21,304 bases of DNA from IMG/VR virus record IMGVR_UViG_2778261461_000001, positions 1 to 21,304 of that record, one strand, 5' to 3'. The position numbers and the translations under genes are program-made. Source of the stretch: a virus (taxonomy: Duplodnaviria > Heunggongvirae > Uroviricota > Caudoviricetes). The notes under the pieces are model-generated. The model did not search any database. It saw only the letters and a list, made by a program, of their open reading frames with translations, and was not told where the DNA came from. This document shows, one piece after another, positions 1 through 16,492 of the stretch. How positions within the stretch are numbered: position 1 is the stretch's first letter; every line of letters begins with the position of its first letter.

Positions 1-525
1 CAGCTTCTCAACGGATTTATACCATGGCACTTTAAAGCCAGCATCACTGACAATGAGCGGTGTGGTGTTACTCGGTAGAATGCTCGCAAGGTCGGCTAGA
101 AATTGGTCATGAGCTTTCTTTGAACATTGCTCTGAAAGCGGGAACGCTTTCTCATAAAGAGTAACAGAACGACCGTGTAGTGCGACTGAAGCTCGCAATA
201 CCATAAGCCGTTTTTGCTCACGGATATCAGACCAGTCAACAAGTACAATGGGCATCGTATTGCCCGAACAGATAAAGCTAGCATGCCAACGGTATACAGC
301 GAGTCGCTCTTTGTGGAGGTGACGATTACCTAACAATCGGTCGATTCGTTTGATGTTATGTTTTGTTCTCGCTTTGGTTGGCAGGTTACGGCCAAGTTCG
401 GTAAGAGTGAGAGTTTTACAGTCAAGTAAGGCGTGGCAAGCCAACGTTAAGCTGTTGAGTCGTTTTAAGTGTAATTCGGGGCAGAATTGGTAAAGAGAGT
501 CGTGTAAAATATCGAGTTCGCACAT
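1..525 (-). CDS. IS10 transposase, N-terminal 175 codons (partial, continues beyond window)
   Basis: Minus-strand translation from ATG at 525 gives MCELDILHDSLYQFCPELHLKRLNSLTLACHALLDCKTLTLTELGRNLPTKARTKHNIKR..., recognised as IS10/Tn10 transposase; in frame to the window edge. Not in the ORF track because it has no stop in the window. Confidence 0.9.
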   Translation of the reverse strand, partial: MCELDILHDSLYQFCPELHLKRLNSLTLACHALLDCKTLTLTELGRNLPTKARTKHNIKRIDRLLGNRHLHKERLAVYRWHASFICSGNTMPIVLVDWSDIREQKRLMVLRASVALHGRSVTLYEKAFPLSEQCSKKAHDQFLADLASILPSNTTPLIVSDAGFKVPWYKSVEKL

Positions 526-586
526 TTTGTTGTCTGATTATTGATTTTTGGCGAAACCATTTGATCATATGACAAGATGTGTATCT
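518..586 (+). ncRNA. IS10 RNA-OUT antisense RNA (approximate bounds)
   Basis: Position inferred from the known IS10 layout (pOUT reading outward across the transposase start); sequence ttcgcacattttgttgtctgattattgatttttggcgaaaccatttgatcatatgacaagatgtgtatc resembles RNA-OUT from memory. Bounds are not verified. Confidence 0.45.
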
Positions 587-1119
587 ACCTTAACTTAATG
601 ATTTTGATAAAAATCATTAGGGGATTCATCAGTGCTTGGCAGGCATAATAAGAGGCAATAGAGTAAAAATCCCGAAAGAACAAGATATGCCATGTACGCT
701 TCAATTAACGATGATATATGTCGGCATCACCTTTTTCCTAATTGTCGGTTATATCTGCCATCAAATAACTTAGAACTGATTTAGAATTGAATTTGATAAA
801 GCTTACTACAAAGTAGTTTTGTCAATGTTCAACCTGTTTATCAAACCTACGGTGACTTTTTATGACTGGGAATGGTATCAATACTGTACGCATAAACAAC
901 GAAGTGAAACACATCTCAGAGTTAGATCCGGAGATCTCTTTTTCTTGAATGGAATAAACTGAAAAGTGAAAATAACGAACTGTATCGCTGCATAAAGGAA
1001 GCAAATTCTGGTTGGCGTGGTTTTGTCCTTCGTTTAATAGGGGTTTATCTACCTGATGGCAAAACAATTGTCATTAAACCCTAGATTATTTGAATATTCC
1101 TAAACATAGGCTTAATAAG

Positions 1120-1174: not shown

Positions 1175-1933
1175 TTAGATGAGGAAATCATCCAGTGTTT
1201 TACCGGCTTCAAGTTGTTCGGCCAGTGCTTTAGGGGTACGCCCCTGGCCAGTCCAGGTTTTCGTTTCACCATTAACATCAGTGTATTTATATTTCGCAGG
1301 GCGCGGTTCGCGAACTTTTTTAGGTGCTCCGGACTTTGCAGAGAAAGAACTCAGTAACTCTTCAGGGTCAATTCCATCTTCAAGCATTAATTGACGCAGG
1401 GATTCAATCTTCTCCAGACGCGCTTTCAGCTCAGCTTCTTTTGAAGATTCTTCCTGACGTCGTTCTTCAATATTTGTATCAACCTGAACCTTCTGTATCT
1501 GCTGGATCGCTGCACTCTGGTCTTCCAGTTTCTTATTGACGGTCTGTGTGATTTCATTGCTGACATCCGTAATGGACGTCCTGATTTCAGCCAGGTCAGG
1601 CGCAAGCTGACCGTTATCAATCTGCGTCCACAGCTCCTGAGCCAGATGGGTTTTCCCTATCTCGCCTTTGAAAAAATCCAGATAGCCGGATGCATCATCA
1701 CTCGGCTGACCAACAGCCTCCACGAATGCCGATTTGCCAACGGTGTTCACACTGCGGATATAAAAGTAATAATCATGGCCCGGTTTGATATTGATACTGG
1801 CGGCTATCCAGTACAGCGCCGTACCAAGATAGCTGCTGCTCCCCAAGCCACACAGGAGGCTCATTATCTCCGGCCATACGCGCATCATGTTCCTGCCATT
1901 GTTTCGCGTGTGCCCAGGCATCACTACCCGCAA
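1175..1933 (-). CDS. Chimeric ORF: lambdoid host-specificity protein J internal fragment fused in frame to an H-NS/StpA-family C-terminal region (probable recombination product, possibly pseudogene)
   Basis: Residues about 35-105 ([41 protein letters not shown]...LDFFKG) match the lambda J C-terminal region; residues about 155-252 (IEERRQEES...[13 protein letters not shown]...[24 protein letters not shown]...LDDFLI) match the H-NS/StpA linker and DNA-binding domain including the TWTGQGRTP motif. The annotated start is TTG and there is no ATG near the H-NS-like part. Confidence 0.55.
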
Positions 1934-2003
1934 AAATAATGACTTCTGTTCCTTTGTGTTTTATGCCGCGTGACTGCTGTTTTACGTTCGGTGCCAGTTT
2001 CAT
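1773..2003 (-). CDS. Hypothetical small protein (76 aa); 3' end reads J-derived DNA out of frame, so likely truncated by the insert/J junction near 1831
   Basis: ATG at 2003 overlaps the upstream stop (ATGA) and is preceded by AGAGG; the C-terminal about 20 codons overlap J-homologous DNA in another frame. Confidence 0.4.
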
Positions 2004-2299
2004 TTTTTACCTCTGAATCCGTTAATCATGGTTTTCATTTTCTGGATATTTCCCCACGCTTTTTCCCTGCTGATGGGCTTACTGCGGGGTGCGGCATATA
2101 CCAGGGAAAAATCACGCCGGAACTGATAAACAGGCATCACGCAGTCATAGCTATACCCCTCACGGCGGTAAGTGATGCGCCGTTCTGCCACGCCTTTAAT
2201 CGTTACCGTGCCGCCGTATTTATCGCGGTAAATATCGCCGTTCATAAATTCAGTTCGAGCGGGGCCGCTGGCAATAAAGCCAGAATTTTTCATTTCCAT
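2000..2299 (-). CDS. Hypothetical small protein (99 aa), fourth gene of small-protein operon
   Basis: ATG with GAGGA 10 nt upstream; ATGA stop/start overlap with the downstream gene; no family recognised. Confidence 0.5.
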   Translation of the reverse strand: MEMKNSGFIASGPARTEFMNGDIYRDKYGGTVTIKGVAERRITYRREGYSYDCVMPVYQFRRDFSLVYAAPRSKPISREKAWGNIQKMKTMINGFRGKK

Positions 2300-2316
2300 A
2301 TTATTTATTCCTCGAC

Positions 2317-2538
2317 TTAACTCGACTTATTTGATAGCAGGGCACTATTTATTGCGTCATTGAGTTTTTCTGCTGATTCATCAATAAGTGACAACAGGCC
2401 ATAAGCAATATTTGCATCTTCATTGTCATTTATGCAATCAAGCCACATATTTAATATTGCTTTTGCTGAATTATTTAAAGTTAATGAACTTTCTGCACAT
2501 GCTAACAATTTAAAAAAGACTTCCCGTTCTGTATTCAT
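2317..2538 (-). CDS. Hypothetical acidic small protein (73 aa), third gene of operon
   Basis: ATG immediately follows the upstream stop at 2539-2541; GGGGGA upstream; predicted helical and acidic; no family recognised. Confidence 0.5.
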   Translation of the reverse strand: MNTEREVFFKLLACAESSLTLNNSAKAILNMWLDCINDNEDANIAYGLLSLIDESAEKLNDAINSALLSNKSS

Positions 2539-2730
2539 TTAATCCCCCACCAGCTTACTTTCTTCCTCAATCAAAAAACTAGCGACACTTCCCGAAAGAC
2601 GCGCCAGTAGGCTCGCCAGTGCGGATATATCAGCATCTGTAATTTTGTTCGGGTATACCTCAAGAAGGCGGCAAATAATTTCTGTCTGGTGCGCACGTTC
2701 AGCGGCTTCGTGTAATGTAATTTCCTGCAT
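2539..2730 (-). CDS. Hypothetical small protein (63 aa), second gene of operon
   Basis: TAATG stop/start overlap with the upstream gene; GAGGTG upstream. Confidence 0.5.
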   Translation of the reverse strand: MQEITLHEAAERAHQTEIICRLLEVYPNKITDADISALASLLARLSGSVASFLIEEESKLVGD

Positions 2731-2915
2731 TAATGCACCTCTTTTAATTCATACATTGCTGAAATAATGACTTGTGATAAGCCATATTCTGATGATTCGC
2801 TTCTCACCGCAGCAATAGCCGTCTGAACATTAACAGCCTTCACATTCTGAGCGATACCAATTGTGTGGCCTATTGGGTTAACAGCTCGGGCAAATACACG
2901 GAAGGTTTTAAGCAT
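2730..2915 (-). CDS. Hypothetical small protein (61 aa), first gene of operon
   Basis: ATG at 2915 with GGGAG 7 nt upstream; lies directly downstream of the divergent regulatory region. Confidence 0.5.
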   Translation of the reverse strand: MLKTFRVFARAVNPIGHTIGIAQNVKAVNVQTAIAAVRSESSEYGLSQVIISAMYELKEVH

Positions 2916-3194
2916 GACTCACTCCCTGGCGGATTTTTGCAGCGAATACAGCAACACAACCGGACGGGCAACGGCTACGCGCTTCGCGTTCCGTCCAGGC
3001 GGTTACGTGGATGATTTGAGATTCTCCGGCACTCAGTGCCAGAAAACGCCACACAAAGGCCGTTTGTGTGTGTACAAGGTGTGGTATATGATTTACAGCA
3101 ACCATAACGGCTCCTAGTTTACGTTGTTGGTTAGACGCCCCGTATGTGTTCCCAGCACTGCGGGGCGTTGCTCTTTGTATTTCAACAATCCTTT

Positions 3195-3275
3195 CGGTGT
3201 GTTTCATGTTATGAGCGCATGAAACACACGTCAAGGCTTTTTGTATTTCTTTTTTTGTGTATACTGAAACACACC
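3195..3275. promoter_or_regulatory. Putative operator/promoter region between the RHH regulator gene and the small-protein operon
   Basis: Inverted repeat GTGTGTTTCATG (3197-3208) - 9 bp - CATGAAACACAC (3218-3229), with a third half-site TGAAACACAC at 3265-3274 overlapping a TATACT -10-like hexamer (3260-3265) about 30 bp upstream of the RHH start. Confidence 0.4.
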
Positions 3276-3295
3276 GATGATTAGGAGTTTCAGAA

Positions 3296-3601
3296 ATGGC
3301 AACGGCTAACAAAAACGCAAAATCACAACTGACAACTGTCAGAGTCCCACTAGATGTTATGCAAGGGATGGAATCCGTTAAGCTGGACGGTGAAAGCAAT
3401 GCCGGATTTATCGTAACCGCCATGCGCGGAGAAATAGCCCGCCGCCAAGCAGAAGGCAGCGGAGAAAATCCCCTTGTGTCGTCACTGGATGCCCTGGCTA
3501 AGGTCGAACAAATCGGCATCAAAGCAGCCGAGGAGATCGGGCAACTCGTCACCGTCGCGCGTGAAGAACTCCAGCGACGCAAGGTCAAAGAGCATGAATA
3601 G
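3296..3601 (+). CDS. Putative ribbon-helix-helix (Arc/CopG-like) transcriptional regulator (101 aa)
   Basis: AGGAG 8 nt upstream of the ATG; N-terminus (TTVRVPLDVMQGMESV...AGFIVTAMRGEIARRQ) has a beta-strand then two helices typical of RHH; sits beside the palindromic operator. Confidence 0.55.
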   Translation: MATANKNAKSQLTTVRVPLDVMQGMESVKLDGESNAGFIVTAMRGEIARRQAEGSGENPLVSSLDALAKVEQIGIKAAEEIGQLVTVAREELQRRKVKEHE

Positions 3602-3658
3602 CCAATATCAGCGCCATAGTTTGAGGAACGCAGGCGCATTGCTTTACAGGACAGCACC

Positions 3659-3838
3659 ATGAGCGACACAGAATCAACCAAAACACCATCACCAACTCGT
3701 AAGAGACGACGCAAAAATATAGCGCATGAACATGAATCAGAAAGATTCGCACCTTGTTCGTTTGCTCTTGAGAAATTCCTTAAAGAGCACAGGAAAAAGC
3801 TCTCGTTGCAAACCTTGGAACGAACCAAATCTGACTGA
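3659..3838 (+). CDS. Hypothetical basic small protein (59 aa); below the ORF-track length cutoff
   Basis: ATG at 3659 with AGGA 7 nt upstream, 57 bp after the RHH gene and followed by a terminator; translation MSDTESTKTPSPTRKRRRKNIAHEHESERFAPCSFALEKFLKEHRKKLSLQTLERTKSD. Confidence 0.3.
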   Translation: MSDTESTKTPSPTRKRRRKNIAHEHESERFAPCSFALEKFLKEHRKKLSLQTLERTKSD

Positions 3839-3904
3839 TCACATTGCCCACCAGCCGCAAATGTGGCATTGTTGGTGATGCTTTTGTTTTCCCTTGTTCC
3901 CACT

Positions 3905-3936
3905 GGCGACCCTTTTGCGGTCGCCTTTGTTTTGTC
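3905..3936 (+). terminator. Rho-independent terminator for the plus-strand RHH/59-aa unit
   Basis: GGCGACC-cttttgc-GGTCGCC hairpin followed by TTTGTTTTGT. Confidence 0.5.
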
Positions 3937-4513
3937 ACTGAATGCGGTTACCAAAGTAAAACTCAGGCTGATATTCACGTATCAGCGTTTTTTCTTCTTC
4001 CTCCAGCTCACGCTTTTTGCGCTTACATGCCTGTAGCTCCCTCCCCTTCTCGCTGGCACTTATTTGATATTGCTCTTTACGGCGGGAAAAATCCTGTAAT
4101 GCACCCCACGGGATACCATAAGTCCCCGTTTTTCTGATACCTGGTATCACATTTCTGAATACCCAGTTACTGAAACGATGAGCAAATGTGCCAGGCGTCG
4201 TTGCTTTGCGGCTGCGGGCTATTAGTTTGTAGAAACCTGACTCAGAGATAATTCTCATATTCTGATTTCCTCCTGGGGTGTAAGTTAAATTTACTCCCTT
4301 TTCATCATCATCAAGCATCTGCAACGCCGTACGCGAATTGGTTAGTTCCAGCGCAGCACAAACATCTTTTGCAACAAACCACGGATCGCCGTTCAGATAC
4401 ACCACACGAACGTTCACACTATCAAAGCGCAGAACGACGAGATCACGAATATCGCAGAATTTTTTCACTGGACGAGCGTACCCCTTGCCCGTCACGGCAA
4501 TATTTTTATTCAT
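3935..4513 (-). CDS. Bro-N domain protein (phage antirepressor-like), 192 aa
   Basis: N-terminal region (FDSVNVRVVYLNGDPWFVAKDVCAALEL) is a recognisable Bro-N/antirepressor-type motif; C-terminus is charged and coiled-coil-like. Confidence 0.7.
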   Translation of the reverse strand: MNKNIAVTGKGYARPVKKFCDIRDLVVLRFDSVNVRVVYLNGDPWFVAKDVCAALELTNSRTALQMLDDDEKGVNLTYTPGGNQNMRIISESGFYKLIARSRKATTPGTFAHRFSNWVFRNVIPGIRKTGTYGIPWGALQDFSRRKEQYQISASEKGRELQACKRKKRELEEEEKTLIREYQPEFYFGNRIQ

Positions 4514-4531
4514 CGCGTTTTTACCTTATAG

Positions 4532-4556
4532 ACAAAAAACCCCTCGTGATGAGGGG
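4532..4556 (-). terminator. Hairpin with T-run after alpA (terminator or attenuator)
   Basis: CCCCTC-gtgat-GAGGGG followed on the minus strand by TTTTTTGT, 14 bp after the alpA stop and about 20 bp before the Bro-N start. Confidence 0.4.
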
Positions 4557-4569
4557 CATTATTTACTGG

Positions 4570-4827
4570 TTATTGCTGTTTTGTTTTTCCAGGTTTCCAT
4601 CCAGGATGCCACTCACCACGGATCCATGCCTGAACCTCTGAAAGTCGATACCCTGCAGCACGTTCACCGATCTTGATACGTCGCGGGAATTTACCTGCCT
4701 GCTCCATTTTCCAGCGTGTTGAGTTTGCCAGCGTGGTAAGTGCTATGCACTCTTTTTCACGAATGAACCGATCAATGTCCTTCATTGTGCGCAAATCGTT
4801 TTCATCAACAAGAGAATAAATTGCCAT
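4570..4827 (-). CDS. alpA: AlpA-family transcriptional regulator / excisionase-like protein (85 aa)
   Basis: Sequence (...GKFPRRIKIGERAAGYRLSEVQAWIRGEW...) matches the AlpA/Vis-type HTH family; start is 1 nt after the integrase stop, GAGGTGG upstream. Confidence 0.8.
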   Translation of the reverse strand: MAIYSLVDENDLRTMKDIDRFIREKECIALTTLANSTRWKMEQAGKFPRRIKIGERAAGYRLSEVQAWIRGEWHPGWKPGKTKQQ

Positions 4828-4828
4828 A

Positions 4829-6070
4829 TCACACCACCTCTTTATTAAGCTCGATAACGTTGTTGTTAAATCCTGCTATCGTATTAAGGTAATTAACCCA
4901 CATATTAAGCACCTCAAGTTTTTTCTTTATATGCCTGCTTTTATTGTAAACACCAGCAACCCCTTTCACTTTATGACCTAAAAGAAGTTCGACAATATAA
5001 GGATCCGCCCCCATATCATTAAGCGTAGTGGAAAATGTGCGCCTGAAATCATGTATGCACCACAAGCCATTAGTATCATGACCAAGACGCCTGCATATTC
5101 TGTTTGCAGCCCCTGTTATTGTCGCCCTTTGCAAAGCACAACCGACAACATAACCGCGATTTTTTGTTTCTGCGTAAAGATTAACGATCCATTGTTTTAT
5201 TCCGTCAGGAACAGGCCTTACTATAGCCTCCTTGTTTTTGCTGTGCTCTTTTGGGACTGTCCATACCCAGTTTTTTAAATCCCATTCGTCCCAGGTGGAT
5301 AGCCTCGCCTCCTGCTGTCGGCAACCAAACACCAGGCAGATAACCATTATTCTTCGGTTATATATTGATGACAGAGTTAGCAAATTATTACCGTAAGCAT
5401 AAGACCATACATCAGCGGTTTCATTGATATTAAGAACGCGATCCCTTATACCGGATGAGCGCCCGACATAACTTACGTTAATATCTCCAAAGGGATCGCA
5501 CGCGATGTATTGCCTGACGCGACAAAAACGCAACGCCTGTTTGATATCAAGAAAAATTGCACCAGACATAACAGGCGCATTTTTTTTGATCCTGTCAAAG
5601 ACGGTAAGCCATGTGTGTAATTTGCACTGTTCTATAGCCATATCACCGATATAGGGGAAGATATGCTTTTCAAATCGTTTTATTAAATATTCATGCTCTT
5701 TTCTGGCTGTTGTGGCGTGATTGTCGTACCAGTAAAACAGCGCATCCCTTACGGTCACTGGTTGCATAGTTTTTTCGGCAGCAAGTTTTATTTGCCTGCG
5801 GGGGTCCAGATTTTCAGCCAGCCATTCACGGCACTGATCACGCATGCGCCTGGCCGTTGCAAGAGACATGTCAGGATAGCGACCAAGTGTAAGCCATACC
5901 GGAGGGGATTCCCTGCCACCAAGACGATAGTAAAAAACAAAGCTGATCCCCCCAACCATGCTTACACGCACAGACAACCCGCGCCCATCCGCTATTGTTT
6001 TTTGTTTGTCCTGCCGTTTTCCGACAAGACTCTTTAACAGTTTGTCACTGAGTTTGTTTTCAATAGCCAT
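4829..6070 (-). CDS. int: Tyrosine recombinase (P4/CP4-57-type integrase with N-terminal arm-binding domain), 413 aa
   Basis: N-terminal DUF4102-like arm-binding region (GRGLSVRV...FYYRLGGRE...LTLGRYPDMSLATAR) and C-terminal catalytic motifs (HDFRRT, LLGHK, GVYNKSRH); GAGGG upstream of the ATG. Confidence 0.85.
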   Translation of the reverse strand: MAIENKLSDKLLKSLVGKRQDKQKTIADGRGLSVRVSMVGGISFVFYYRLGGRESPPVWLTLGRYPDMSLATARRMRDQCREWLAENLDPRRQIKLAAEKTMQPVTVRDALFYWYDNHATTARKEHEYLIKRFEKHIFPYIGDMAIEQCKLHTWLTVFDRIKKNAPVMSGAIFLDIKQALRFCRVRQYIACDPFGDINVSYVGRSSGIRDRVLNINETADVWSYAYGNNLLTLSSIYNRRIMVICLVFGCRQQEARLSTWDEWDLKNWVWTVPKEHSKNKEAIVRPVPDGIKQWIVNLYAETKNRGYVVGCALQRATITGAANRICRRLGHDTNGLWCIHDFRRTFSTTLNDMGADPYIVELLLGHKVKGVAGVYNKSRHIKKKLEVLNMWVNYLNTIAGFNNNVIELNKEVV

Positions 6071-6086
6071 TAAAAGCCCTCAAGAG

Positions 6087-6142
6087 ATTTGCAATACACA
6101 CCCATCCCGATCGCCAATTTGCAATACACATTGCAATACACA
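6087..6142. repeat. Three direct repeats of TTGCAATACACA upstream of the integrase start (candidate arm-type or regulator binding sites)
   Basis: Copies at 6089-6100, 6119-6130 and 6131-6142, 20-70 bp upstream of int. Confidence 0.5.
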
Positions 6143-6270
6143 AAACCGCGAAAAACTGGAAGGGTGATGAACGGTCATCAAAAGCATGGAAAACGACATT
6201 CCAGACGCAGCAAGGGTTTCAGTGGAGTTGGCGAACGATGCGGGCAACTACGGTGAGATGATAGACATAA

Positions 6271-7303
<1,033 letters not shown>

Positions 7304-7954
7304 TCATCCTCTCCGGATAAGGCACGGGCGTAATCTGCCAGTGTTTTCTTGTTGGTTGCTGCACCATCCTCTTCCTGCAGGCTCGCCAGCAGTGCACTGA
7401 GATCCAGCTGCCAGCGGGAAATACTGATGCGCAGCGCCGCCAGCGCATATCAGTTCATCCAGCGCGGCTGCTTTGTTCATGGCTTTGATAATATCCCGTT
7501 TCAGGAAATCAACATGTCGGTTTTCCAGTTCCGGAAAACGCCGCTGCACCGACAGGGGGAGCCCGTCGAGAATACTGGCAATTTCACCTGCGATCCGCGA
7601 CAACACGAAAGTACAGAATGCGGTTTCCACCACTTCAGCGGAGTCTCTGGCATTCTTCAGTTCCTGTGCGTCGGCCTGCGCACGCGTAAGTCGATGGCGT
7701 TCGTACTCAATAGTCCCTGGCTGGAGATCTGCCTCGCTGGCCTGGCGCAGTTCTTCAACCTCCCGGCGCAGCTTTTCGTTCTCAATTTCAGCATCCCTTT
7801 CGGCATACCATTTTATAACGGCGGCAGAGTCATAAAGCACCTCATTACCCTTGCCACCGCCTCGCAGAACGGGCATTCCCTGTTCCTGCCAGTTCTGAAT
7901 GGTACGGATACTCGCACCGAAAATGTCAGCCAGCTGCTTTTTGTTGACTTCCAT
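7304..7954 (-). pseudogene. nu1: Terminase small subunit Nu1 fused to the 3' end of terminase large subunit gene A (internal deletion of nearly all of A)
   Basis: Matches lambda Nu1 up to ...AAALDELI (junction about 7447-7451); downstream DNA corresponds to the last about 50 codons of A read out of frame. Confidence 0.8.
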
Positions 7955-8131
7955 TGTTCATTCCACGGCCAAAAACAGAGAAAGGAAACGACAAAGGCCC
8001 AAAAGTTCGTTTTCAGCACCTGTCGTTTCCTTTCTTTTCAGGGGGTATTTTAAATAAAAACATTAAGTTACGACGAAGAAGAACGGAAACGCCTTAAACC
8101 GGAAAATTTTCATAAATAGCGAAAACCCGCG

Positions 8132-8143
8132 AGGTCGCCGCCC
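8132..8143. other. cosN cohesive-end site, with cosB and cosQ flanks at about 8040-8210
   Basis: AGGTCGCCGCCC is the reverse complement of the lambda cohesive end GGGCGGCGACCT; flanks match the remembered lambda left-end and right-end sequences. Confidence 0.8.
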
Positions 8144-8342
8144 CGTAACCTGTCGGATCGCCGGAAAGGACCCGCAAAATGATAATAATTATCATCTGCA
8201 TGTCACAACGTGCATCTACGCCATCAAACCACGTCAAATAATCAATTATGACGCAGGTATCGTATTAATTGATCTGCATCAACTTAACGTAAAAACAACT
8301 TCAGACAATACAAATCAGCGACACTGAATACGGGGCAACCTC

Positions 8343-8537
8343 ATGTCAACGAAGAACAAAACCCGCAGAACAACAACCCGCAACATCCGCTTTCCTAACC
8401 AAATGATTGAACAAATTAACATCGCTCTTGAGCAAAAAGGGTCTGGGAATTTCTCAGCCTGGGTCATTGAAGCCTGCCGTCGGAGACTAACGTCAGAAAA
8501 GAGAGCATATACATCAATCCAAAGTGATGATGAATAA
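8343..8537 (+). CDS. Small conserved ORF (64 aa) corresponding to a lambda right-end ORF; possible RHH-like fold
   Basis: DNA matches the remembered lambda right-end region; translation MSTKNKTRRTTTRNIRFPNQMIEQINIALEQKGSGNFSAWVIEACRRRL... Confidence 0.45.
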   Translation: MSTKNKTRRTTTRNIRFPNQMIEQINIALEQKGSGNFSAWVIEACRRRLTSEKRAYTSIQSDDE

Positions 8538-8896
8538 ACATCCCGGTTTCTTCCACCATCGCACCGGAAAAGCGACTATGAGGGTAACCCTGCGTCTGTC
8601 AGCACAGTAAAACCCGGTGTGCATCGTTTTTGATTATTCCCGCACACTCACGCAGAAGGAATTCCCCGTCGGGCTACGGTCATGGTTAATGCGGGAATAC
8701 GGCGACGATACAGCGCAGCTAAAAGGGTAATGGACAGATAGAGCGGTTTATTTCATTCCACAGGATTCTGAGTGCCCCCCTCCTCCAATAGGCTGAGCAT
8801 CCACCTATATAGTTTTATTTTTCATCAATCCATTTAACTATCGTTTAATTGTTGTCACATAGGATTCTGCCGTTTTTAACAATGCAGGATAATAAG

Positions 8897-9190
8897 ATGA
8901 AAAAAATGTTGTTTTCTGCCGCTCTGGCAATGCTTATTACAGGATGTGCTCAACAGACGTTTACTGTTGGAAACAAACCGACAGCAGTAACACCAAAGGA
9001 AACCATCACCCATCATTTCTTCGTTTCGGGAATTGGACAGGAGAAAACTGTTGATGCAGCCAAAATTTGTGGCGGCGCAGAAAATGTTGTTAAAACAGAA
9101 ACCCAGCAAACATTCGTAAATGGATTGCTCGGTTTTATTACTTTAGGCATTTATACTCCGCTGGAAGCGCGGGTGTATTGCTCACAATAA
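8897..9190 (+). CDS. bor: Bor lipoprotein (serum-resistance, lysogenic conversion), 97 aa
   Basis: MKKMLFSAALAMLITGCAQQTF... with lipobox LITGC; matches lambda Bor; AGGA upstream of ATG at 8897 (the ORF-track start at 8849 is rejected). Confidence 0.85.
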   Translation: MKKMLFSAALAMLITGCAQQTFTVGNKPTAVTPKETITHHFFVSGIGQEKTVDAAKICGGAENVVKTETQQTFVNGLLGFITLGIYTPLEARVYCSQ

Positions 9191-9221
9191 TTGCATGAGT
9201 TGCCCATCGATATGGGCAGCT

Positions 9222-9683
9222 CTATCTGCACTGCTCATTAATATACTTCTGGGTTCCTTCCAGTTGTTTTTGCATCGTGATCAGCCTCTCTCTGAGAGTG
9301 AAATAATCCCGTTCAGCGGTGTCTGCCAGTCGGGGGGAGGCTGCATTATCCACGCCGGAGGCGGTGGTGGCTTCACGCACTGACTGACAGACTGCTTTGA
9401 TGTGCAACCGACGACGACCAGCGGCAACATCATCACGCAGAGCATCATTTTCAGCTTTCGCATCAGCTAACTCCTTCGTGTATTTTGCATCGAGCGCAGC
9501 AACATCACGCTGACGCATCTGCATGTCAGTAATTGCCGCGTTCGCCAGCTTCAGTTCTCTGGCATTTTTGTCGCGCTGGGCTTTGTAGGTAATGGCGTTA
9601 TCACGGTAATGATTAACAGCCCATGACAGGCAGACGATGATGCAGATAACCAGAGCGGAGATAATCGCGGTTACTCTGTTCAT
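9222..9683 (-). CDS. Rz: Rz i-spanin (lambda-type), 153 aa from ATG at 9683
   Basis: Matches lambda Rz (…[58 protein letters not shown]...); ATGA overlap with the endolysin stop. Confidence 0.85.
9281..9463 (-). CDS. Rz1: Rz1 o-spanin lipoprotein embedded in Rz in the +1 frame
   Basis: [52 protein letters not shown]; lipobox plus proline-rich region typical of lambda Rz1. Confidence 0.8.
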
Positions 9684-10177
9684 TGCTGACCCCACAAACA
9701 GATTTCACGCTCAATCTCACGACGAGTCATGAGACCTTTCCATTGCTTACCGCCAGCATATGTCCAGCGACGTAGCTGATCACATGCGCCTTTGATATCG
9801 CCCTGGTTTATTTTGCGAAGAAGCGTCGATGTTCTGAAATTGCCAGCACCCACGTTGTAAACGAATGAGTAAAGAGCGCCGCGCGTTGTTTCCGGTATAT
9901 CGACTTTGATGTACGGGTTAATTTGTCTGGCGACCGTGGCAAGGTCTTTATTCAGGAGGGCTTTGCATTCTGCTTTGGTATACGTTTTACCGAGCATGAT
10001 GTCTTTTCCTGTATGCCCGTGACATACAGTCCATACACCAACAATATCTTTGTATGGTATGTAGCTGACACCTTCCAGACCATCGTTACCACTTGGGCCA
10101 GTGATTAACACTGATGCTATAGCAATTGCTCCGCCACCAATAGCAGCAGCAACGGCTTTTCGTAATGATGGAGGCAT
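9680..10177 (-). CDS. R: SAR endolysin (phage 21 R-type, T4-lysozyme family with N-terminal signal-anchor-release domain), 165 aa
   Basis: N-terminal Gly/Ala-rich SAR segment ([20 protein letters not shown]) followed by a lysozyme-like domain; overlaps the holin stop. Confidence 0.85.
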
Positions 10178-10392
10178 TATTCACCTCTCGCAGCCTTGCG
10201 CTTATCTTCTTTAATCTTGAAATAAAGGTTTGTCAGGTACGTCAGCAGGCCAAATACCAGGCTACCCAGCACACCTATTGCTGCCCACTGTGAGGGCGTG
10301 ACTTTATCGAGCAGCTGTAAAAACCAGTAACCGGCACTACCTGCTGAGGTGCCATAGGCGACACCCGTTGTTAACTTATCCATGGATTTCAT
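10177..10392 (-). CDS. S: Class II pinholin (S21-type), about 71 aa from MKSMDKL
   Basis: Two transmembrane segments and a dual-start motif (MKSMDKL); GAGGTG upstream of ATG at 10392 (the ORF-track start at 10437 is probably too long). Confidence 0.8.
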
Positions 10393-10980
10393 AACCCCAC
10401 CTCGCAGACAAAGCGGGTGTAAATTGAGGGAATACAACGTATCGCAAAAAAGCAGAAACGTAACAGACTCGGAGTCAGTGAATAACTCAGGTATTGAGTT
10501 ATCAGCTAATATCGAGACTCAAAAAATGGAAAAACCAGCTCGACGGCGGGTTTAAGCTGTGTGACGAAGTAACCACTCTTAACAGCATAACCAATTTTTT
10601 ACGTACGTAAACCACTGAATGATATTTATGAGAATGCTACCGAGTGTTCAAAACTCCACCACAAATACATAAGAAAACCTCAACAAATAACCAATAAATA
10701 ATTTCAGATGTTATTTTTAGTTGATTTAAATTAAACTGCCGAATTATAGAACCCCCATAAATAACAGCCATTAATATAAATTAGCTAATAGGTTTATTTT
10801 TGTTCAAATAAGAGCCATAAATAGGTTTCGATAGAAAAAGTTCAGATAAAAATAGAGATCTACTTCACAAATTAAATGAGAAACTAAAACTTACATCTTG
10901 AAATAATCACATTGATTAGATGAATATTTATCGCGCAGTGACATCATTTTTTAATAATAGTTCAAAAAAAAGGGCTCACG

Positions 10981-12063
10981 ATGAAAAAATTAACAGTGGC
11001 AATTTCTGCTGTAGCTGCATCAGTACTGATGGCGATGTCTGCTCAGGCAGCTGAAATTTATAATAAAGACAGTAACAAGCTGGATCTGTACGGGAAAGTT
11101 AATGCTAAGCACTACTTCTCCTCTAATGATGCAGATGATGGTGATACTACTTATGCCCGTCTTGGCTTCAAAGGTGAAACCCAAATCAACGATCAACTGA
11201 CTGGTTTCGGTCAGTGGGAATATGAATTCAAAGGCAACCGCGCTGAATCTCAAGGTTCCTCCAAAGATAAAACCCGTCTTGCCTTCGCTGGCCTGAAATT
11301 CGGTGACTACGGCTCCATCGATTATGGCCGTAACTACGGTGTAGCATACGATATTGGTGCATGGACCGACGTTCTGCCAGAATTCGGTGGCGATACCTGG
11401 ACCCAAACAGATGTATTCATGACTGGTCGCACCACAGGTGTTGCAACTTATCGTAACAACGACTTCTTTGGTCTGGTTGATGGCCTGAACTTTGCAGCTC
11501 AGTATCAGGGCAAAAATGACCGAAATGAAGTAACTGAAGCTAATGGCGATGGTTTCGGTTTCTCAACTACTTATGAGTATGAAGGATTCGGCGTGGGTGC
11601 AACCTATGCTAAATCTGATCGCACTAATAATCAGGTTATCTACGGTAACAACGGTCTGAATGCTTCTGGTCAAAATGCTGAAGTATGGGCAGCTGGTCTG
11701 AAATATGATGCGAACAACATCTATCTGGCCACCACCTATTCTGAAACCCAGAACATGACTGTTTTTGGTAATAACCATATTGCCAACAAAGCACAAAACT
11801 TCGAAGCTGTTGCACAATATCAGTTCGACTTCGGCCTGCGTCCATCCGTTGCTTACCTGCATTCTAAAGGAAAAGACTTGGGTGTTTGGGGTGATCAGGA
11901 CCTGGTTGAGTATGTTGATGTAGGTGCAACCTATTACTTCAACAAAAATATGTCCACTTTTGTTGACTACAAAATCAACCTGATTGATAAGAGCGATTTC
12001 ACGAAAGCATCTGGCGTTGCTACCGATGATATCGTTGCTGTAGGTATGGTTTACCAGTTCTAA
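10981..12063 (+). CDS. nmpC: Prophage-encoded general porin of the OmpC/OmpF/NmpC (Lc) family, 360 aa with signal peptide
   Basis: Signal peptide ending AQA, then [23 protein letters not shown]... and C-terminal ...VAVGMVYQF typical of enterobacterial porins; position between Q and the lysis cassette on the opposite strand matches DLP12 nmpC and PA-2 lc. Confidence 0.85.
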
Positions 12064-12190
12064 TTTGATTACTAAAAGGTATGTTGTGGGAGGCTTTGCC
12101 TCCCCAACATATAAGTGGCTCCCTCAAGCCACTTCCTTTAGAAGCACAACCTTGCTTCTAACTATACAAACCTTCTGTTATATATTACCC

Positions 12191-12215
12191 TTTATTTTTG
12201 GGGGCGTTTCAACGC
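12191..12215 (+). terminator. Rho-independent terminator downstream of the porin gene
   Basis: GGGGCG-tttcaa-CGCCCC followed by ATTTTT. Confidence 0.6.
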
Positions 12216-12251
12216 CCCATTTTTAATAACTTTTAGTAAATAATTGGCGTA

Positions 12252-12635
12252 TTAATTAGAGTTATTAACAACGATATCCATCTCTAACCGGATATCTAAT
12301 GCCATTAACATCCCTTCAATTATGCCCTCAGCCTTTTGTAACCTTTTCCCGATATAACCATCAGAGCAGCAATGCTTACCTGCCAGTGACATGAATGTCA
12401 TACCGACTACATAATAATCTACTAATAAATCGTGCAAATCGCTGTTGTTCTTTTTCAGACGGGCCATGCACCCGCAAATGATCATCGCGTCATCGTCACA
12501 ACATTGCGGGCGAGATTTTACTTTTGAAAGAATTAATCCCTTAAAACCGGCGGCAATGGACGACCAGGTCACATCTTCATGATTATTAGCCGCCCACGCT
12601 CCCCAACGCTCAAGAACCATCTGAATATCACGCAT
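12252..12635 (-). CDS. Q: Late-gene antiterminator Q (phage 82/21/DLP12 QuuD-type), 127 aa from ATG at 12635
   Basis: Cys-rich zinc-binding region ([19 protein letters not shown]); GGAG upstream of ATG at 12635 (the ORF-track TTG start at 12650 is rejected); sits between rusA and the lysis genes. Confidence 0.75.
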
Positions 12636-12720
12636 CAACTTACTCCACAAAAATCAGACCAGAACGCCAATTACAAGCAAAAATCAACAAAACAGTATTA
12701 GTTGATTGTTATCTCTGACT

Positions 12721-12861
12721 TCATACTCCTGCTCCTGTCAGGGTTTTGGCGTAATTCTTCAGTATTCGGTAATCGGTCAAAACAGAACCGGGGAAACGAT
12801 ATAAGCGCAGATGCCCCCAGCGGTGGCGAAGAAGTTCTGCCATATAAAACTCAAACATCAT
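12721..12861 (-). CDS. Small ORF (46 aa) between rusA and Q, YlcG-like by position and length; below the ORF-track cutoff
   Basis: ATGATG start overlapping the rusA stop (ATGA); translation [46 protein letters not shown]. Confidence 0.35.
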
Positions 12862-13220
12862 TCATTCCCCATTTCGGTGATGGTCAGTTCCAGCCTCCCA
12901 CCTTTGGTAACAGGCATCTTCACAACGCGGTAATCAACGACCTGAGCATCATCCAGCCAGAAACCTGCTTTAGTGAGTGCGTCAAAAGCGGCTTTTTGCA
13001 GATTATCCAGGTCACGGCGACGGCGATCCGGCATGTGGCACTCAATGCGGATTTTCACAGGCATAGCCAGGCCGATATCCAGCATTGCGTTTTTAATGAT
13101 TCGGGCGACGTTATCGCGGTATGCCTGCCCCTCTGCGCTGACGTGCGTGCGCCCGCGATTATGGCGGTAATAGCGATTATTGCTCGGAGGCCAGGGTAAT
13201 GTGATGCTGTAGGTATTCAC
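12858..13220 (-). CDS. rusA: RusA Holliday-junction resolvase (120 aa, GTG start)
   Basis: [102 protein letters not shown]... matches RusA. Confidence 0.85.
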
Positions 13221-13526
13221 GCCTTAATAACCCCCTCTTTCAGCCAGATAACCTGTGTTCTCGCCATACCTTCCAGCGCGCATTCTTTTGCATATGCAGC
13301 ATCGACTTGCTTGGCATGCCCTTTACCGGCAATCTTCTGTATGCGCTAAACCTAGATAGAATCCACTCTGTGCACATTGAAGCCCGCTCTATGCTTCCTT
13401 TCAGGTATTGAAGGGATTGAGATGGGCTAAGCATTATTGGCCTCCTGCATCAGGAGAAAGACAATCATGGCGGCGCGGAGAGGTCTGGTATCAAATATTG
13501 GGCTTGAAGAACTGAAAGAACACCAA

Positions 13527-13548
13527 GCCGCCTGATGGCGGTTTTTTC
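13527..13548 (+). terminator. Hairpin with T-run upstream of xis (terminator-like)
   Basis: GCCGCC-tgat-GGCGGT followed by TTTTTTCTT. Confidence 0.4.
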
Positions 13549-13574
13549 TTGCGTGTAATTGCGGAGACTTTGCG

Positions 13575-13793
13575 ATGTACTTGACACTTCAGGAGTGGAA
13601 CGCTCGCCAGCGACGCCCAAGAAGCCTTGAAACAGTTCGTCGATGGGTGCGCGAATGCAGGATATTCCCTCCTCCGGTTAAGGATGGAAGAGAATATCTG
13701 TTCCACGAATCAGCGGTAAAGGTTGACTTAAATCGACCAGTAACAGGTAGCCTTTTGAAGAGGATCAGAAATGGGAAGAAGGCGAAGTCATGA
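13575..13793 (+). CDS. xis: Lambda excisionase Xis (72 aa)
   Basis: [72 protein letters not shown] matches lambda Xis. Confidence 0.9.
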
Positions 13794-14841
13794 GCGCCGG
13801 GATTTACCCCCTAACCTTTATATAAGAAACAATGGATATTACTGCTACAGGGACCCAAGGACGGGTAAAGAGTTTGGATTAGGCCGAGACAGGCGAATCG
13901 CAATCACTGAAGCTATACAGGCCAACATTGAGTTATTTTCAGGACACAAACACAAGCCTCTGACAGCGAGAATCAACAGTGATAATTCTGTTACGTTACA
14001 TTCATGGCTTGATCGCTACGAAAAAATCCTGGCCAGCAGAGGAATCAAGCAGAAGACACTCATAAATTACATGAGCAAAATTAAAGCAATAAGGAGGGGT
14101 CTGCCTGATGCTCCACTTGAAGACATCACCACAAAAGAAATTGCGGCAATGCTCAATGGATACATAGACGAGGGCAAGGCGGCGTCAGCCAAGTTAATCA
14201 GATCAACACTGAGCGATGCATTCCGAGAGGCAATAGCTGAAGGCCATATAACAACAAACCCGGTCGCCGCCACTCGCGCAGCAAAATCAGAGGTAAGGAG
14301 ATCAAGGCTTACGGCTGACGAATACCTGAAAATTTATCAAGCAGCAGAATCATCACCATGTTGGCTCAGACTTGCAATGGAACTGGCTGTTGTTACCGGG
14401 CAGCGAGTTGGTGATTTATGCGAAATGAAGTGGTCTGATATCGTAGATGGATATCTTTATGTCGAGCAAAGCAAAACAGGCGTAAAAATTGCCATCCCTA
14501 CAACATTGCGTGTTGATGCTCTCGGGATATCAATGAAGGAAACACTTGATAAATGCAAAGAGATTCTTGGCGGAGAAACCATAATTGCATCTACTCGTCG
14601 TGAACCGCTTTCATCCGGCACAGTATCAAGGTATTTTATGCGCGCACGAAAAGCATCAGGTCTTTCCTTCGAAGGGGATCCGCCTACCTTTCACGAGTTG
14701 CGCAGTTTGTCTGCAAGACTCTATGAGAAGCAGATAAGCGATAAGTTTGCTCAACATCTTCTCGGGCATAAGTCGGACACCATGGCATCACAGTATCGTG
14801 ATGACAGAGGCAGGGAGTGGGACAAAATTGAAATCAAATAA
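13771..14841 (+). CDS. int: Lambda-type integrase Int (356 aa)
   Basis: [68 protein letters not shown]... matches lambda Int; overlaps the xis 3' end as in lambda. Confidence 0.9.
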   Translation: MGRRRSHERRDLPPNLYIRNNGYYCYRDPRTGKEFGLGRDRRIAITEAIQANIELFSGHKHKPLTARINSDNSVTLHSWLDRYEKILASRGIKQKTLINYMSKIKAIRRGLPDAPLEDITTKEIAAMLNGYIDEGKAASAKLIRSTLSDAFREAIAEGHITTNPVAATRAAKSEVRRSRLTADEYLKIYQAAESSPCWLRLAMELAVVTGQRVGDLCEMKWSDIVDGYLYVEQSKTGVKIAIPTTLRVDALGISMKETLDKCKEILGGETIIASTRREPLSSGTVSRYFMRARKASGLSFEGDPPTFHELRSLSARLYEKQISDKFAQHLLGHKSDTMASQYRDDRGREWDKIEIK

Positions 14842-14915
14842 TGATTTTATTTTGACTGATAGTGACCTGTTCGTTGCAACAAATTGATAAGCAATGCTTT
14901 TTTATAAGGCCTACT

Positions 14916-14930
14916 TAGTATAAAAAAGCA
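14916..14930. other. Prophage/chromosome junction attL: att core TTAGTATAAAAAAGC flanked by the phage P' arm (left) and the chromosomal B arm (right)
   Basis: Core is the reverse complement of GCTTTTTTATACTAA; right flank AGGCTTCA matches the E. coli attB arm; left flank resembles the lambda P' arm with about 3 differences (from memory). Confidence 0.8.
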
Positions 14931-14975
14931 GGCTTCAACGGATTCATTTTTCTATTTCATAGCCCGGAGCAACCT

Positions 14976-16259
14976 GTGAACACATTTTCAGTTTCCCGTC
15001 TGGCGCTGGCATTGGCTTTTGGCGTGACGCTGACCGCCTGTAGCTCAACCCCGCCCGATCAACGTCCTTCTGATCAAACCGCGCCTGGTACCTCTTCTCG
15101 CCCGATTCTGTCGGCAAAAGAAGCGCAGAATTTCGATGCTCAACACTATTTTGCATCCCTGACACCAGGTGCTGCAGCGTGGAATCCTTCCCCGATTACC
15201 CTGCCTGCGCAACCTGACTTTGTTGTCGGCCCGGCGGGCACTCAAGGTGTAACGCATACCACGATTCAGGCGGCGGTAGATGCGGCAATTATCAAGCGTA
15301 CCAACAAGCGCCAGTATATTGCCGTGATGCCTGGTGAGTATCAGGGAACGGTATATGTCCCTGCCGCTCCGGGTGGAATTACTCTGTACGGTACAGGTGA
15401 AAAACCGATTGATGTGAAGATTGGGCTTTCCCTTGATGGTGGCATGAGCCCTGCCGACTGGCGTCACGACGTCAACCCGCGCGGCAAATATATGCCAGGT
15501 AAACCAGCGTGGTATATGTACGATAGCTGCCAGAGCAAACGCAGCGACAGTATCGGTGTTCTCTGCTCTGCGGTCTTCTGGTCACAAAACAATGGCCTGC
15601 AACTGCAAAATCTGACCATCGAAAACACGCTGGGCGATAGCGTAGATGCAGGTAACCATCCGGCGGTGGCACTGCGTACTGATGGTGACCAGGTACAGAT
15701 TAACAACGTTAACATTCTCGGTCGTCAGAACACCTTCTTTGTCACCAACAGCGGTGTGCAGAACCGTCTGGAAACGAATCGTCAGCCGCGTACGCTGGTG
15801 ACCAACAGCTACATTGAAGGGGATGTGGATATCGTTTCTGGTCGCGGCGCAGTGGTGTTCGATAACACCGAATTCCGCGTGGTGAACTCACGTACTCAGC
15901 AAGAAGCGTATGTGTTTGCACCGGCTACGCTGTCCAACATTTACTACGGTTTCCTCGCCGTAAACAGCCGTTTCAATGCTTTCGGTGATGGTGTGGCGCA
16001 ACTGGGCCGCTCGCTGGATGTTGATGCCAATACCACCGGTCAGGTGGTGATCCGTGATAGCGCCATCAACGAAGGTTTTAACACGGCTAAACCGTGGGCC
16101 GATGCGGTGATCTCTAATCGTCCGTTTGCGGGTAATACCGGCAGCGTAGATGATAACGACGAAATACAGCGCAATCTGAATGACACTAACTACAACCGCA
16201 TGTGGGAATACAATAACCGCGGCGTGGGTAGTAAAGTGGTTGCAGAGGCGAAGAAGTAA
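14976..16259 (+). CDS. ybhC: YbhC outer-membrane lipoprotein (pectinesterase-like acyl-CoA thioesterase), 427 aa, GTG start
   Basis: Signal peptide with lipobox LTAC; sequence and position next to attB-lambda match E. coli ybhC. Confidence 0.85.
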   Translation: MNTFSVSRLALALAFGVTLTACSSTPPDQRPSDQTAPGTSSRPILSAKEAQNFDAQHYFASLTPGAAAWNPSPITLPAQPDFVVGPAGTQGVTHTTIQAAVDAAIIKRTNKRQYIAVMPGEYQGTVYVPAAPGGITLYGTGEKPIDVKIGLSLDGGMSPADWRHDVNPRGKYMPGKPAWYMYDSCQSKRSDSIGVLCSAVFWSQNNGLQLQNLTIENTLGDSVDAGNHPAVALRTDGDQVQINNVNILGRQNTFFVTNSGVQNRLETNRQPRTLVTNSYIEGDVDIVSGRGAVVFDNTEFRVVNSRTQQEAYVFAPATLSNIYYGFLAVNSRFNAFGDGVAQLGRSLDVDANTTGQVVIRDSAINEGFNTAKPWADAVISNRPFAGNTGSVDDNDEIQRNLNDTNYNRMWEYNNRGVGSKVVAEAKK

Positions 16260-16264
16260 GAGCA

Positions 16265-16480
<216 letters not shown>

Positions 16481-16492
16481 ACATGGCGCTTT

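Follow-up and report, generated by a model that had tools for sequence, protein, structure and literature searches.

An intact lambda-type cos site left beside a Nu1-A deletion joint in a decayed lambdoid prophage of Escherichia coli

What becomes of a packaging start site when the enzyme that used it has been lost? In the window, by which we mean the whole stretch of 21,304 nucleotides analysed here, a lambda-type cos site stands beside a gene for the small terminase subunit (Nu1) that runs into the last part of the gene for the large subunit (A). A sequence-only reading of this DNA had suggested that a lambda-like helper phage could cut at this cos and mobilise the adjacent DNA in the manner of a cosmid. 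The site might thus be an origin of mobilisation, a part that the host has put to its own use, or simply a leftover. Our answer is that the locus is an ordinary lambda-like prophage remnant, which has lost its packaging enzyme with the packaging start site still intact, and that it is probably no more than a passive relic of a lambdoid prophage that is decaying at the lambda attachment site (ybhC/bio) of one E. coli lineage.

The window positions 1471-17954 and beyond are identical, in reverse orientation, to the chromosome of E. coli strain C1 (NZ_CP195942.1), which is the closest complete genome. Here the RefSeq annotation of C1 shows what heavy decay has left of a lambdoid prophage in the lambda attachment site, with ybhC on one side and ybhB-bioA on the other. 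Read in lambda orientation, the C1 locus starts with int and xis, which are followed by a deletion and then by ninX', rusA, ylcG, quuD, a porin gene, essD, rrrD, rzpD, iss/bor, ylcI, and cos. Past cos there are a gene for a 216-aa 'terminase small subunit', W, and a truncated portal gene, beyond which lie a second integrase gene with AlpA, BRO-N, Icd-like, and DUF4222 genes and a truncated primase gene. The far end is made up of a piece of the tail-tip gene J, lom', and tail-fibre genes. According to the same annotation, the remnant in C1 lacks an immunity or replication region as well as capsid and tail-shaft genes. The ylcI gene just upstream of cos (window 8343-8537, plus strand) encodes a YlcI/DUF3950 protein of 64 aa, as it does at the same place in the K-12 prophage DLP12.

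At its other end the window leaves the C1 sequence inside the J' remnant, at the junction 1470/1471, and positions 1-1470 match neither C1 nor any contig of the lineage. Within this part, positions 633-1470 match large E. coli plasmids with 100% identity (an H-NS family gene and a hypothetical gene), and positions 1-633 read like an IS10 end. Across the junction runs an ORF (1933..1175, minus strand) in which J' continues in frame into the C-terminal part of the plasmid H-NS. A 35-mer spanning this J'::plasmid-hns junction is absent from the genome and metagenome contig collections, and the fusion protein is likewise not on record there. The junction stems either from a chimeric assembly or from an additional rearrangement of the source strain.

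The genes next to cos, from the terminase to the portal, comprise the following features.

7448..7954, minus strand: Nu1 (TerS), codons 1-169 of 181; residues 1-169 are 100% identical to lambda Nu1.
7448-7449: deletion joint with a 2-bp microhomology (TA), where the two lambda-homologous blocks overlap.
7300..7447, minus strand: remainder of gene A, the last 148 nt (codons 593-641 and the stop codon), lambda 2489-2636, out of frame with Nu1'.
7954..7304, minus strand: 216-aa fusion ORF, Nu1 residues 1-169 plus 47 unrelated residues; RefSeq 'terminase small subunit' WP_227453950.1.
7097..7303, minus strand: gene W, head-tail joining protein, intact; 68 aa identical to lambda W; Pfam gpW.
6266..7100, minus strand: portal gene B, N-terminal part only, lambda 2836-3670, interrupted by the insertion of a PICI-type island.

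BLAST and global alignment to lambda (J02459) resolve this region into two colinear minus-strand blocks that meet at 7448-7449, which confirms the breakpoints in Nu1 and A. The first block, window 8554..7448, corresponds to lambda 48092..48502/1..697 with 97.2% identity, and the second, window 7449..6266, to lambda 2487..3670 with 99.4% identity. Because the homology to lambda extends over kilobases, chance similarity is not an issue. The sequence at the joint reads ...GATGAACTGA-TA-TGCGCTGG... A microhomology joint had been predicted at about 7447-7451, and this position is right, but the microhomology amounts to only 2 bp. Compared with lambda as well as with the intact relative EC93, the deletion removes 1,789 bp, namely Nu1 codons 170-181 and A codons 1-592. 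It had been noticed correctly that nearly all of A is gone: only the last 49 of its 641 codons are left, out of frame, and the ATPase and nuclease domains of TerL (gpA) are absent with the others. In contrast, the estimate that about 150 codons of Nu1 are retained was too low, since 169 of the 181 codons are present and all are identical to lambda. The number 150 rather fits the nucleotides that remain of A (lambda 2487-2636, 49 codons and the stop codon).

The Nu1 part covers the Pfam model Phage_Nu1 (PF07471) completely (1-164/164, E = 4.5e-100). From this coverage and the identity to lambda, both the N-terminal winged-helix DNA-binding domain and the central oligomerisation region are present. 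What has been lost is the native TerL-binding C-terminus, with 47 unrelated residues in place of the last 12 of Nu1 (PGLLSEYIEQSG). The 47 residues are not the C-terminus of gpA because the tail of A has been joined out of frame. Thus, the proposed fusion of Nu1 to the end of A exists at the DNA level but not as a protein. The stop codon of the 216-aa ORF is located one base before the start codon of W. Long ORFs on the strand opposite Nu1 (e.g. 7349..8053, plus strand, 234 aa) were treated as by-products of the coding strand, the minus strand encoding 100% lambda Nu1. RefSeq lists the portal gene as 'phage portal protein, missing C-terminus'. Given that there is no TerL, that the portal ends at lambda 3670, and that the capsid and tail-shaft genes as well as the immunity and replication region are missing, the prophage is unable to package itself, as the sequence-only reading had it.

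It could be argued that the deletion was introduced by sequencing or assembly and that the real genome encodes intact Nu1 and A, because strain C1 is the only one of the 5,426 complete RefSeq E. coli genomes that has the joint in one piece. However, other assemblies encode exactly the same 216-aa fusion protein on at least 24 contigs, which come from 82 blocks of the collection. In addition, the 916-bp stretch from cos to the joint is identical in seven independent assemblies with the same locus architecture, one of which is a Logan assembly of a raw sequencing run. The same joint in seven independent assemblies refutes an artefact, to which we assign a negligible probability. Over up to 16 kb, the contigs of this lineage show between zero and seven differences from the window.

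On the other side of the Nu1 start codon, the cos site consists of the following elements.

8173..8167, minus strand: cosQ, GGGTCCT, the packaging-termination element; lambda 48473-48479, 7/7.
8145..8130, minus strand: cosN nicking site, 16 bp (the 12-mer and 2 bp on each side); lambda 48501-14, 16/16.
8143..8132, minus strand: cohesive-end 12-mer GGGCGGCGACCT; lambda 1-12, exact, and the single exact match in the window.
8094..8079, minus strand: R3 of cosB, the critical TerS binding site; lambda 50-65, 16/16.
8036..8078, minus strand: spacer between R3 and R2 with the IHF site I1; A73G and T102C compared with lambda, no indel.
8035..8020, minus strand: R2 of cosB, an inverted R site; lambda 109-124, 16/16.
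7994..7979, minus strand: R1 of cosB, an accessory R site; lambda 151-166, 15/16.

For cosQ, a conserved 7-bp site (PMC4669245), and for cosN, defined as 12+2+2 bp (PMC9026076, Murialdo and Feiss 2022), we followed the extents given for lambda, as we did for R3, which spans 50-65 with the TerS contacts in the segment 55-63 (PMC9026076). In the alignment to lambda (J02459) the spacing between cosN and R3 is unchanged, and there is no indel from cosN to R2. The cosN-R3 spacing is critical. As in lambda, where cosQ is reported to lie at 48473-48479 (Wieczorek and Feiss 2001), the start of cosQ precedes the first cohesive-end base by 30 nt. The only difference within a subsite is C151T in R1, which is located at the outer edge of this element and is 6 bp away from the part that corresponds to the TerS contact segment of R3. 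R1 is non-essential and accessory (PMC4669245). All remaining differences from lambda are found between the subsites (48486, 73, 102, 134, 138-139, and 145), and the interval between R2 and R1 contains a 1-bp deletion. C151T and the 1-bp deletion are shared with phage PhiR26_1, and A73G and T102C with PhiR26_1 and the DLP12 prophage of K-12. Cos was thus described correctly as present with its cosB and cosQ flanks, and the alignment to lambda contains none of the differences in cosN or the contact segments of the R sites that would abolish recognition by terminase.

From cosQ to the Nu1 start codon the window is base-for-base identical to phage PhiR26_1 (PV340555.1) and to E. coli strain EC93. 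The terminase of PhiR26_1 is of the lambda type, Nu1 and A differing from their lambda counterparts by one and two residues, respectively; the viability of this phage rests on its GenBank record (host K-12 MG1655), and a literature search found no paper describing it. Based on the identity to the cos of this deposited phage, the site looks fully functional, as the sequence-only reading had supposed: every sequence element for recognition by a terminase of lambda specificity appears to be there.

Could DNA then be packaged from it? Initiation requires cosN and cosB, and termination requires a downstream cosQ-cosN (PMC4669245, PMC9026076, PMC6687093). Terminase stays on the cosB end so that packaging is unidirectional (PMC4669245; PMC10287942). 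Cos-type terminases need this second cosQ-cosN to complete the head (PMC6687093; PMC4669245), and uncut protruding DNA prevents the joining of tails (PMC6687093). A search for the 12-mer with up to 2-3 mismatches and a cosQ upstream found no second cos in the window, the site described above being the only match. Downstream of cos the window covers 8.1 kb. The scan was continued along the C1 chromosome, from which the window departs at 1-1470, and over 59 kb downstream (bio, uvrB, moa to ybiR; 74 kb scanned) there is no second cos. Because positions 1-1470 are not C1 sequence, this result applies to the closest complete relative and not with certainty to the true source. A replicon is not found in the remnant either, given that the annotation of C1 contains no replication genes there. 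A cosmid-like unit would need either a pair of equally oriented cos sites with about 38-51 kb between them or a replicon from which concatemers arise, and neither was found over the stretch scanned. With one cos and no replicon, cosmid-like packaging is therefore not expected, and this part of the earlier proposal does not hold.

The part concerning the helper is plausible for initiation but not for completion. By analogy with lambda and DLP12, the TerS of an infecting or co-resident phage of lambda specificity would bind to R3 and R2, and its TerL would nick cosN. Initiation and cutting are plausible because the site is intact. DNA would then be translocated from cosN towards Nu1'-W-B' and beyond, i.e. 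to lower window coordinates. Since there is no second cosQ-cosN downstream, the head could not be finished. The main products would be a double-strand break in the chromosome and tailless heads filled from one end. Most of all, the incoming phage would be expected to recombine with the remnant at positions adjoining cos. Sternberg and Weisberg reportedly found, in 1975, that packaging in situ from the cos of an unexcised prophage leads to one-ended, unfinished heads.

Nevertheless, it could be imagined that the orphan cos serves as an origin of mobilisation, from which a helper transfers the island remnant and chromosomal DNA usefully often, either like a cosmid or in a cos version of lateral transduction. 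The site is intact and identical to that of a phage, and a cloned lambda cos is enough for the transfer of plasmids by lambda and phi80 (PMC6092414). Suitable helpers are common, lambda-type A genes being found in 3,784 of the 5,426 E. coli genomes, and in-situ packaging from an unexcised prophage cos was reportedly described by Sternberg and Weisberg (1975). However, the cosmid and plasmid experiments depend on plasmids forming multimers with several cos sites, and the need for a second cos and the block to tail attachment by uncut DNA, together with the missing replicon for concatemers, speak against it. In addition, at the sensitivity of megablast C1 has no other place with a lambda-type cos, Nu1, or A end, and thus no resident helper of the lambda type. 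Useful mobilisation from this cos is therefore unlikely.

If one-ended packaging from such sites were efficient, it would be the counterpart of lateral transduction for cos phages and, given the number of genomes concerned, important. Nothing in the sequence favours this.

A different use would be interference with other phages. The fusion protein might bind to cosB and join the TerS of an incoming phage but hold TerL badly and thereby poison packaging, or the chromosomal cos itself might titrate terminase. An incoming lambdoid phage could trigger late transcription and with it the synthesis of Nu1(1-169)-X, which could occupy cosB or co-assemble with the TerS of the invader, lowering packaging in a manner similar to Rpp. 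The DNA-binding and oligomerisation parts of Nu1 are indeed retained over the full Pfam model. TerL binding maps to the C-terminus of TerS, and TerS without its last 30 residues binds TerL poorly (PMC9026076). Precedents that target packaging are Rpp of the E. coli PICIs (PMC6739421) and TerI of Listeria prophages, and the allele is fixed in the lineage. However, only 12 residues of Nu1 have been lost so that much of the TerL binding may still be there. In relatives both Nu1 and A are normal, and elsewhere many different deletion endpoints follow Nu1, as random decay would give. There is also no evidence for expression outside late transcription. Moreover, the window and its relatives with the joint represent one clonal lineage with zero to seven differences, and fixation in it is therefore uninformative on selection. 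Interference of this kind is thus highly improbable, and there is equally only a very slight chance that an intact cos and a DNA-binding, self-assembling TerS with a foreign C-terminus make up a domesticated anti-phage decoy.

Selection for the cos site was also considered and rejected. Between cosQ and R1 there are eight differences from lambda in 196 bp, where the flanks with their 97.2% identity would predict about 5.6, and all eight are also found in PhiR26_1. The conservation of cos with respect to lambda is therefore no better than that of the flanks, and the lineage is too clonal for a test. On the simplest reading, cos is intact because the remnant is young, and not demonstrably because it has been selected.

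The passive relic that we prefer can be followed back through its relatives. Nu1 of full length (181 aa) and a complete A (641 aa) are still encoded at the same locus in about 50 complete genomes, among them EC93 and EcWJ, and in the Nu1-A region it is exactly the 1,789-bp deletion that sets the window apart from EC93. An island of 10.9 kb with a 13-bp target duplication interrupts the portal gene of EC93, while Nu1 and A are intact, from which it follows that the prophage was dead before A was lost. The ancestral prophage would thus first have been inactivated by a satellite (PICI) inserting into the portal gene B, and larger deletions would have come next. The 1,789-bp illegitimate deletion at the 2-bp microhomology would have been a later event, in which the end of Nu1 and almost all of A disappeared. 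The distance from cos to the deletion is 550 bp, and cos was presumably simply missed. The identity to EC93 is 96.5% on the side of the late genes, cos, and Nu1 (13306-7448) and 99.7% on the side of the A tail, W, B', and the PICI (7449-1828), which suggests that the two sides of the joint have different recombination histories.

The island in EC93 is a cos-type PICI. It encodes an integrase, AlpA, a primase, capsid and decoration homologues, its own cosQ-cosN, and a TerS/Rpp-like gene, and the full element occupies about 18828-29713 of the EC93 locus. The insertion point inside B is at lambda 3658-3670, with the 13-bp duplication, and the gene set of the island at B comprises int, AlpA, BRO-N, Icd-like, DUF4222, and primase genes. 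In the window the element extends over 1828-6266 with its left junction at 6265/6266, and Int, AlpA, and BRO-N are present but the primase is broken off after 59 codons. The cos, capsid, decoration, and TerS/Rpp-like genes known from EC93 have been deleted by a join of primase' to J' at about window 1828. A full PICI of about 10-15 kb would have an integrase, an AlpA regulator, a primase-replicase, a cos of its own, and a gene that redirects packaging, and the island of the window is the remnant of a PICI and not a functional PICI. It also contains a second gene of the YlcI/YnfO family (C1 locus 19700-20005, window 3296-3601).

The junction between B' and int is present in 64 of the 5,426 complete E. 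coli genomes. It was considered whether the archetypal PICI EcCICFT073 also resides in a portal gene, but its position adjoins phoQ. In two papers from the Penades group, PICI sites are stated to be never occupied by prophages and the word 'portal' is not mentioned. A satellite with its attachment site in the portal gene of its helper may merit a separate study. The EC93 locus contains two cos sites in the same orientation, that of the phage at 15159 and that of the PICI at 27924, 12.8 kb apart. CosQ and cosN are identical in the two, the cosQ heptamer having the same offset from cosN in the PICI, but cosB differs.

In itself the locus is of little importance, as E. coli genomes very commonly contain an orphan cos of the lambda type next to a Nu1 homologue, K-12 included. 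The 261-bp cos region has 8,810 matching places in 4,591 of the 5,426 complete E. coli genomes, and an internal 1.7-kb piece of A has 5,372 matching places in the 5,426 genomes. Independent deletions starting at or just after the 3' end of Nu1 are seen in other E. coli genomes, where they join Nu1 to the endonuclease part of gpA, to tail-tip genes, or to tail-fibre genes. The known importance of such sites is that they are recombination hot spots between incoming lambdoid phages and defective prophages, and the outcomes on record are one-ended packaging that aborts and recombination into superinfecting phages that is stimulated by cos. The locus in the window is one more recombination substrate, which offers lambda 1.1 kb of homology at 97% and 1.2 kb at 99%, flanking the deletion. 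Recombination across it could carry the Nu1-A deletion into a phage.

The closest known system is the DLP12 (qsr') prophage of K-12 with its ylcI-cos-nohD-aaaD region. Comparing the RefSeq annotations of strain C1 and K-12, the order of the late genes is the same, with quuD, porin, essD, rrrD, rzpD, bor/iss, and ylcI followed by cos, a Nu1 homologue, and a broken A, and in both the packaging enzyme has been lost and the site kept. A set of head or tail-shaft genes is lacking, in keeping with a remnant of the DLP12 type. The cos sites are closely similar, with identical cosQ, cosN, and R2, but that of the window is nearer to PhiR26_1 and EC93 than to DLP12. DLP12 has a full-length NohD (181 aa) and the first about 100 codons of A joined to tail-fibre genes (aaaD is an A pseudogene that precedes them), whereas the window has a Nu1 without 12 codons joined to the last 49 codons of A, with W and half of B following. 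The chromosomal sites differ as well, DLP12 being located at 0.56-0.59 Mb in K-12 and the prophage of the window in the lambda attachment site. For the cos-nu1 region of DLP12, recombination with lambda is about 100-fold more frequent than for other remnants (PMC3945230, De Paepe et al. 2014), half of the junctions adjoining cos, and the nu1 of DLP12 works in lambda (PMC3945230).

Cosmids show likewise that cosQ, cosN, and cosB of lambda are sufficient in cis for recognition by the terminase of a helper (PMC6092414). However, cosmids replicate and multimerise or are ligated into concatemers so that two cos sites bracket a head-sized piece, while the cos of the window is single and non-replicating. 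In cos-type PICIs of the EcCICFT073 family, to which the neighbouring island remnant is similar in kind (int, AlpA, primase), the island has in relatives its own cosQ-cosN followed by a TerS/Rpp-like gene, which the island of the window has lost. The cos studied here is that of the phage itself and has the R sites of the lambda cosB, and PICI cos sites are without these R sites (PMC9026076).

The unexcised lambda prophage in situ likewise has a single cos in the chromosome, from which packaging proceeds in one direction from the cosB side into adjacent prophage and host DNA without a terminating cos. It reportedly yields the one-ended 'doc' particles. It supplies its own terminase and heads and replicates in situ, while at the locus of the window all of this would have to come from the helper and there is no replication. 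The layout and the idea of in-situ packaging are thus both already known, and the locus is one more member of a familiar class.
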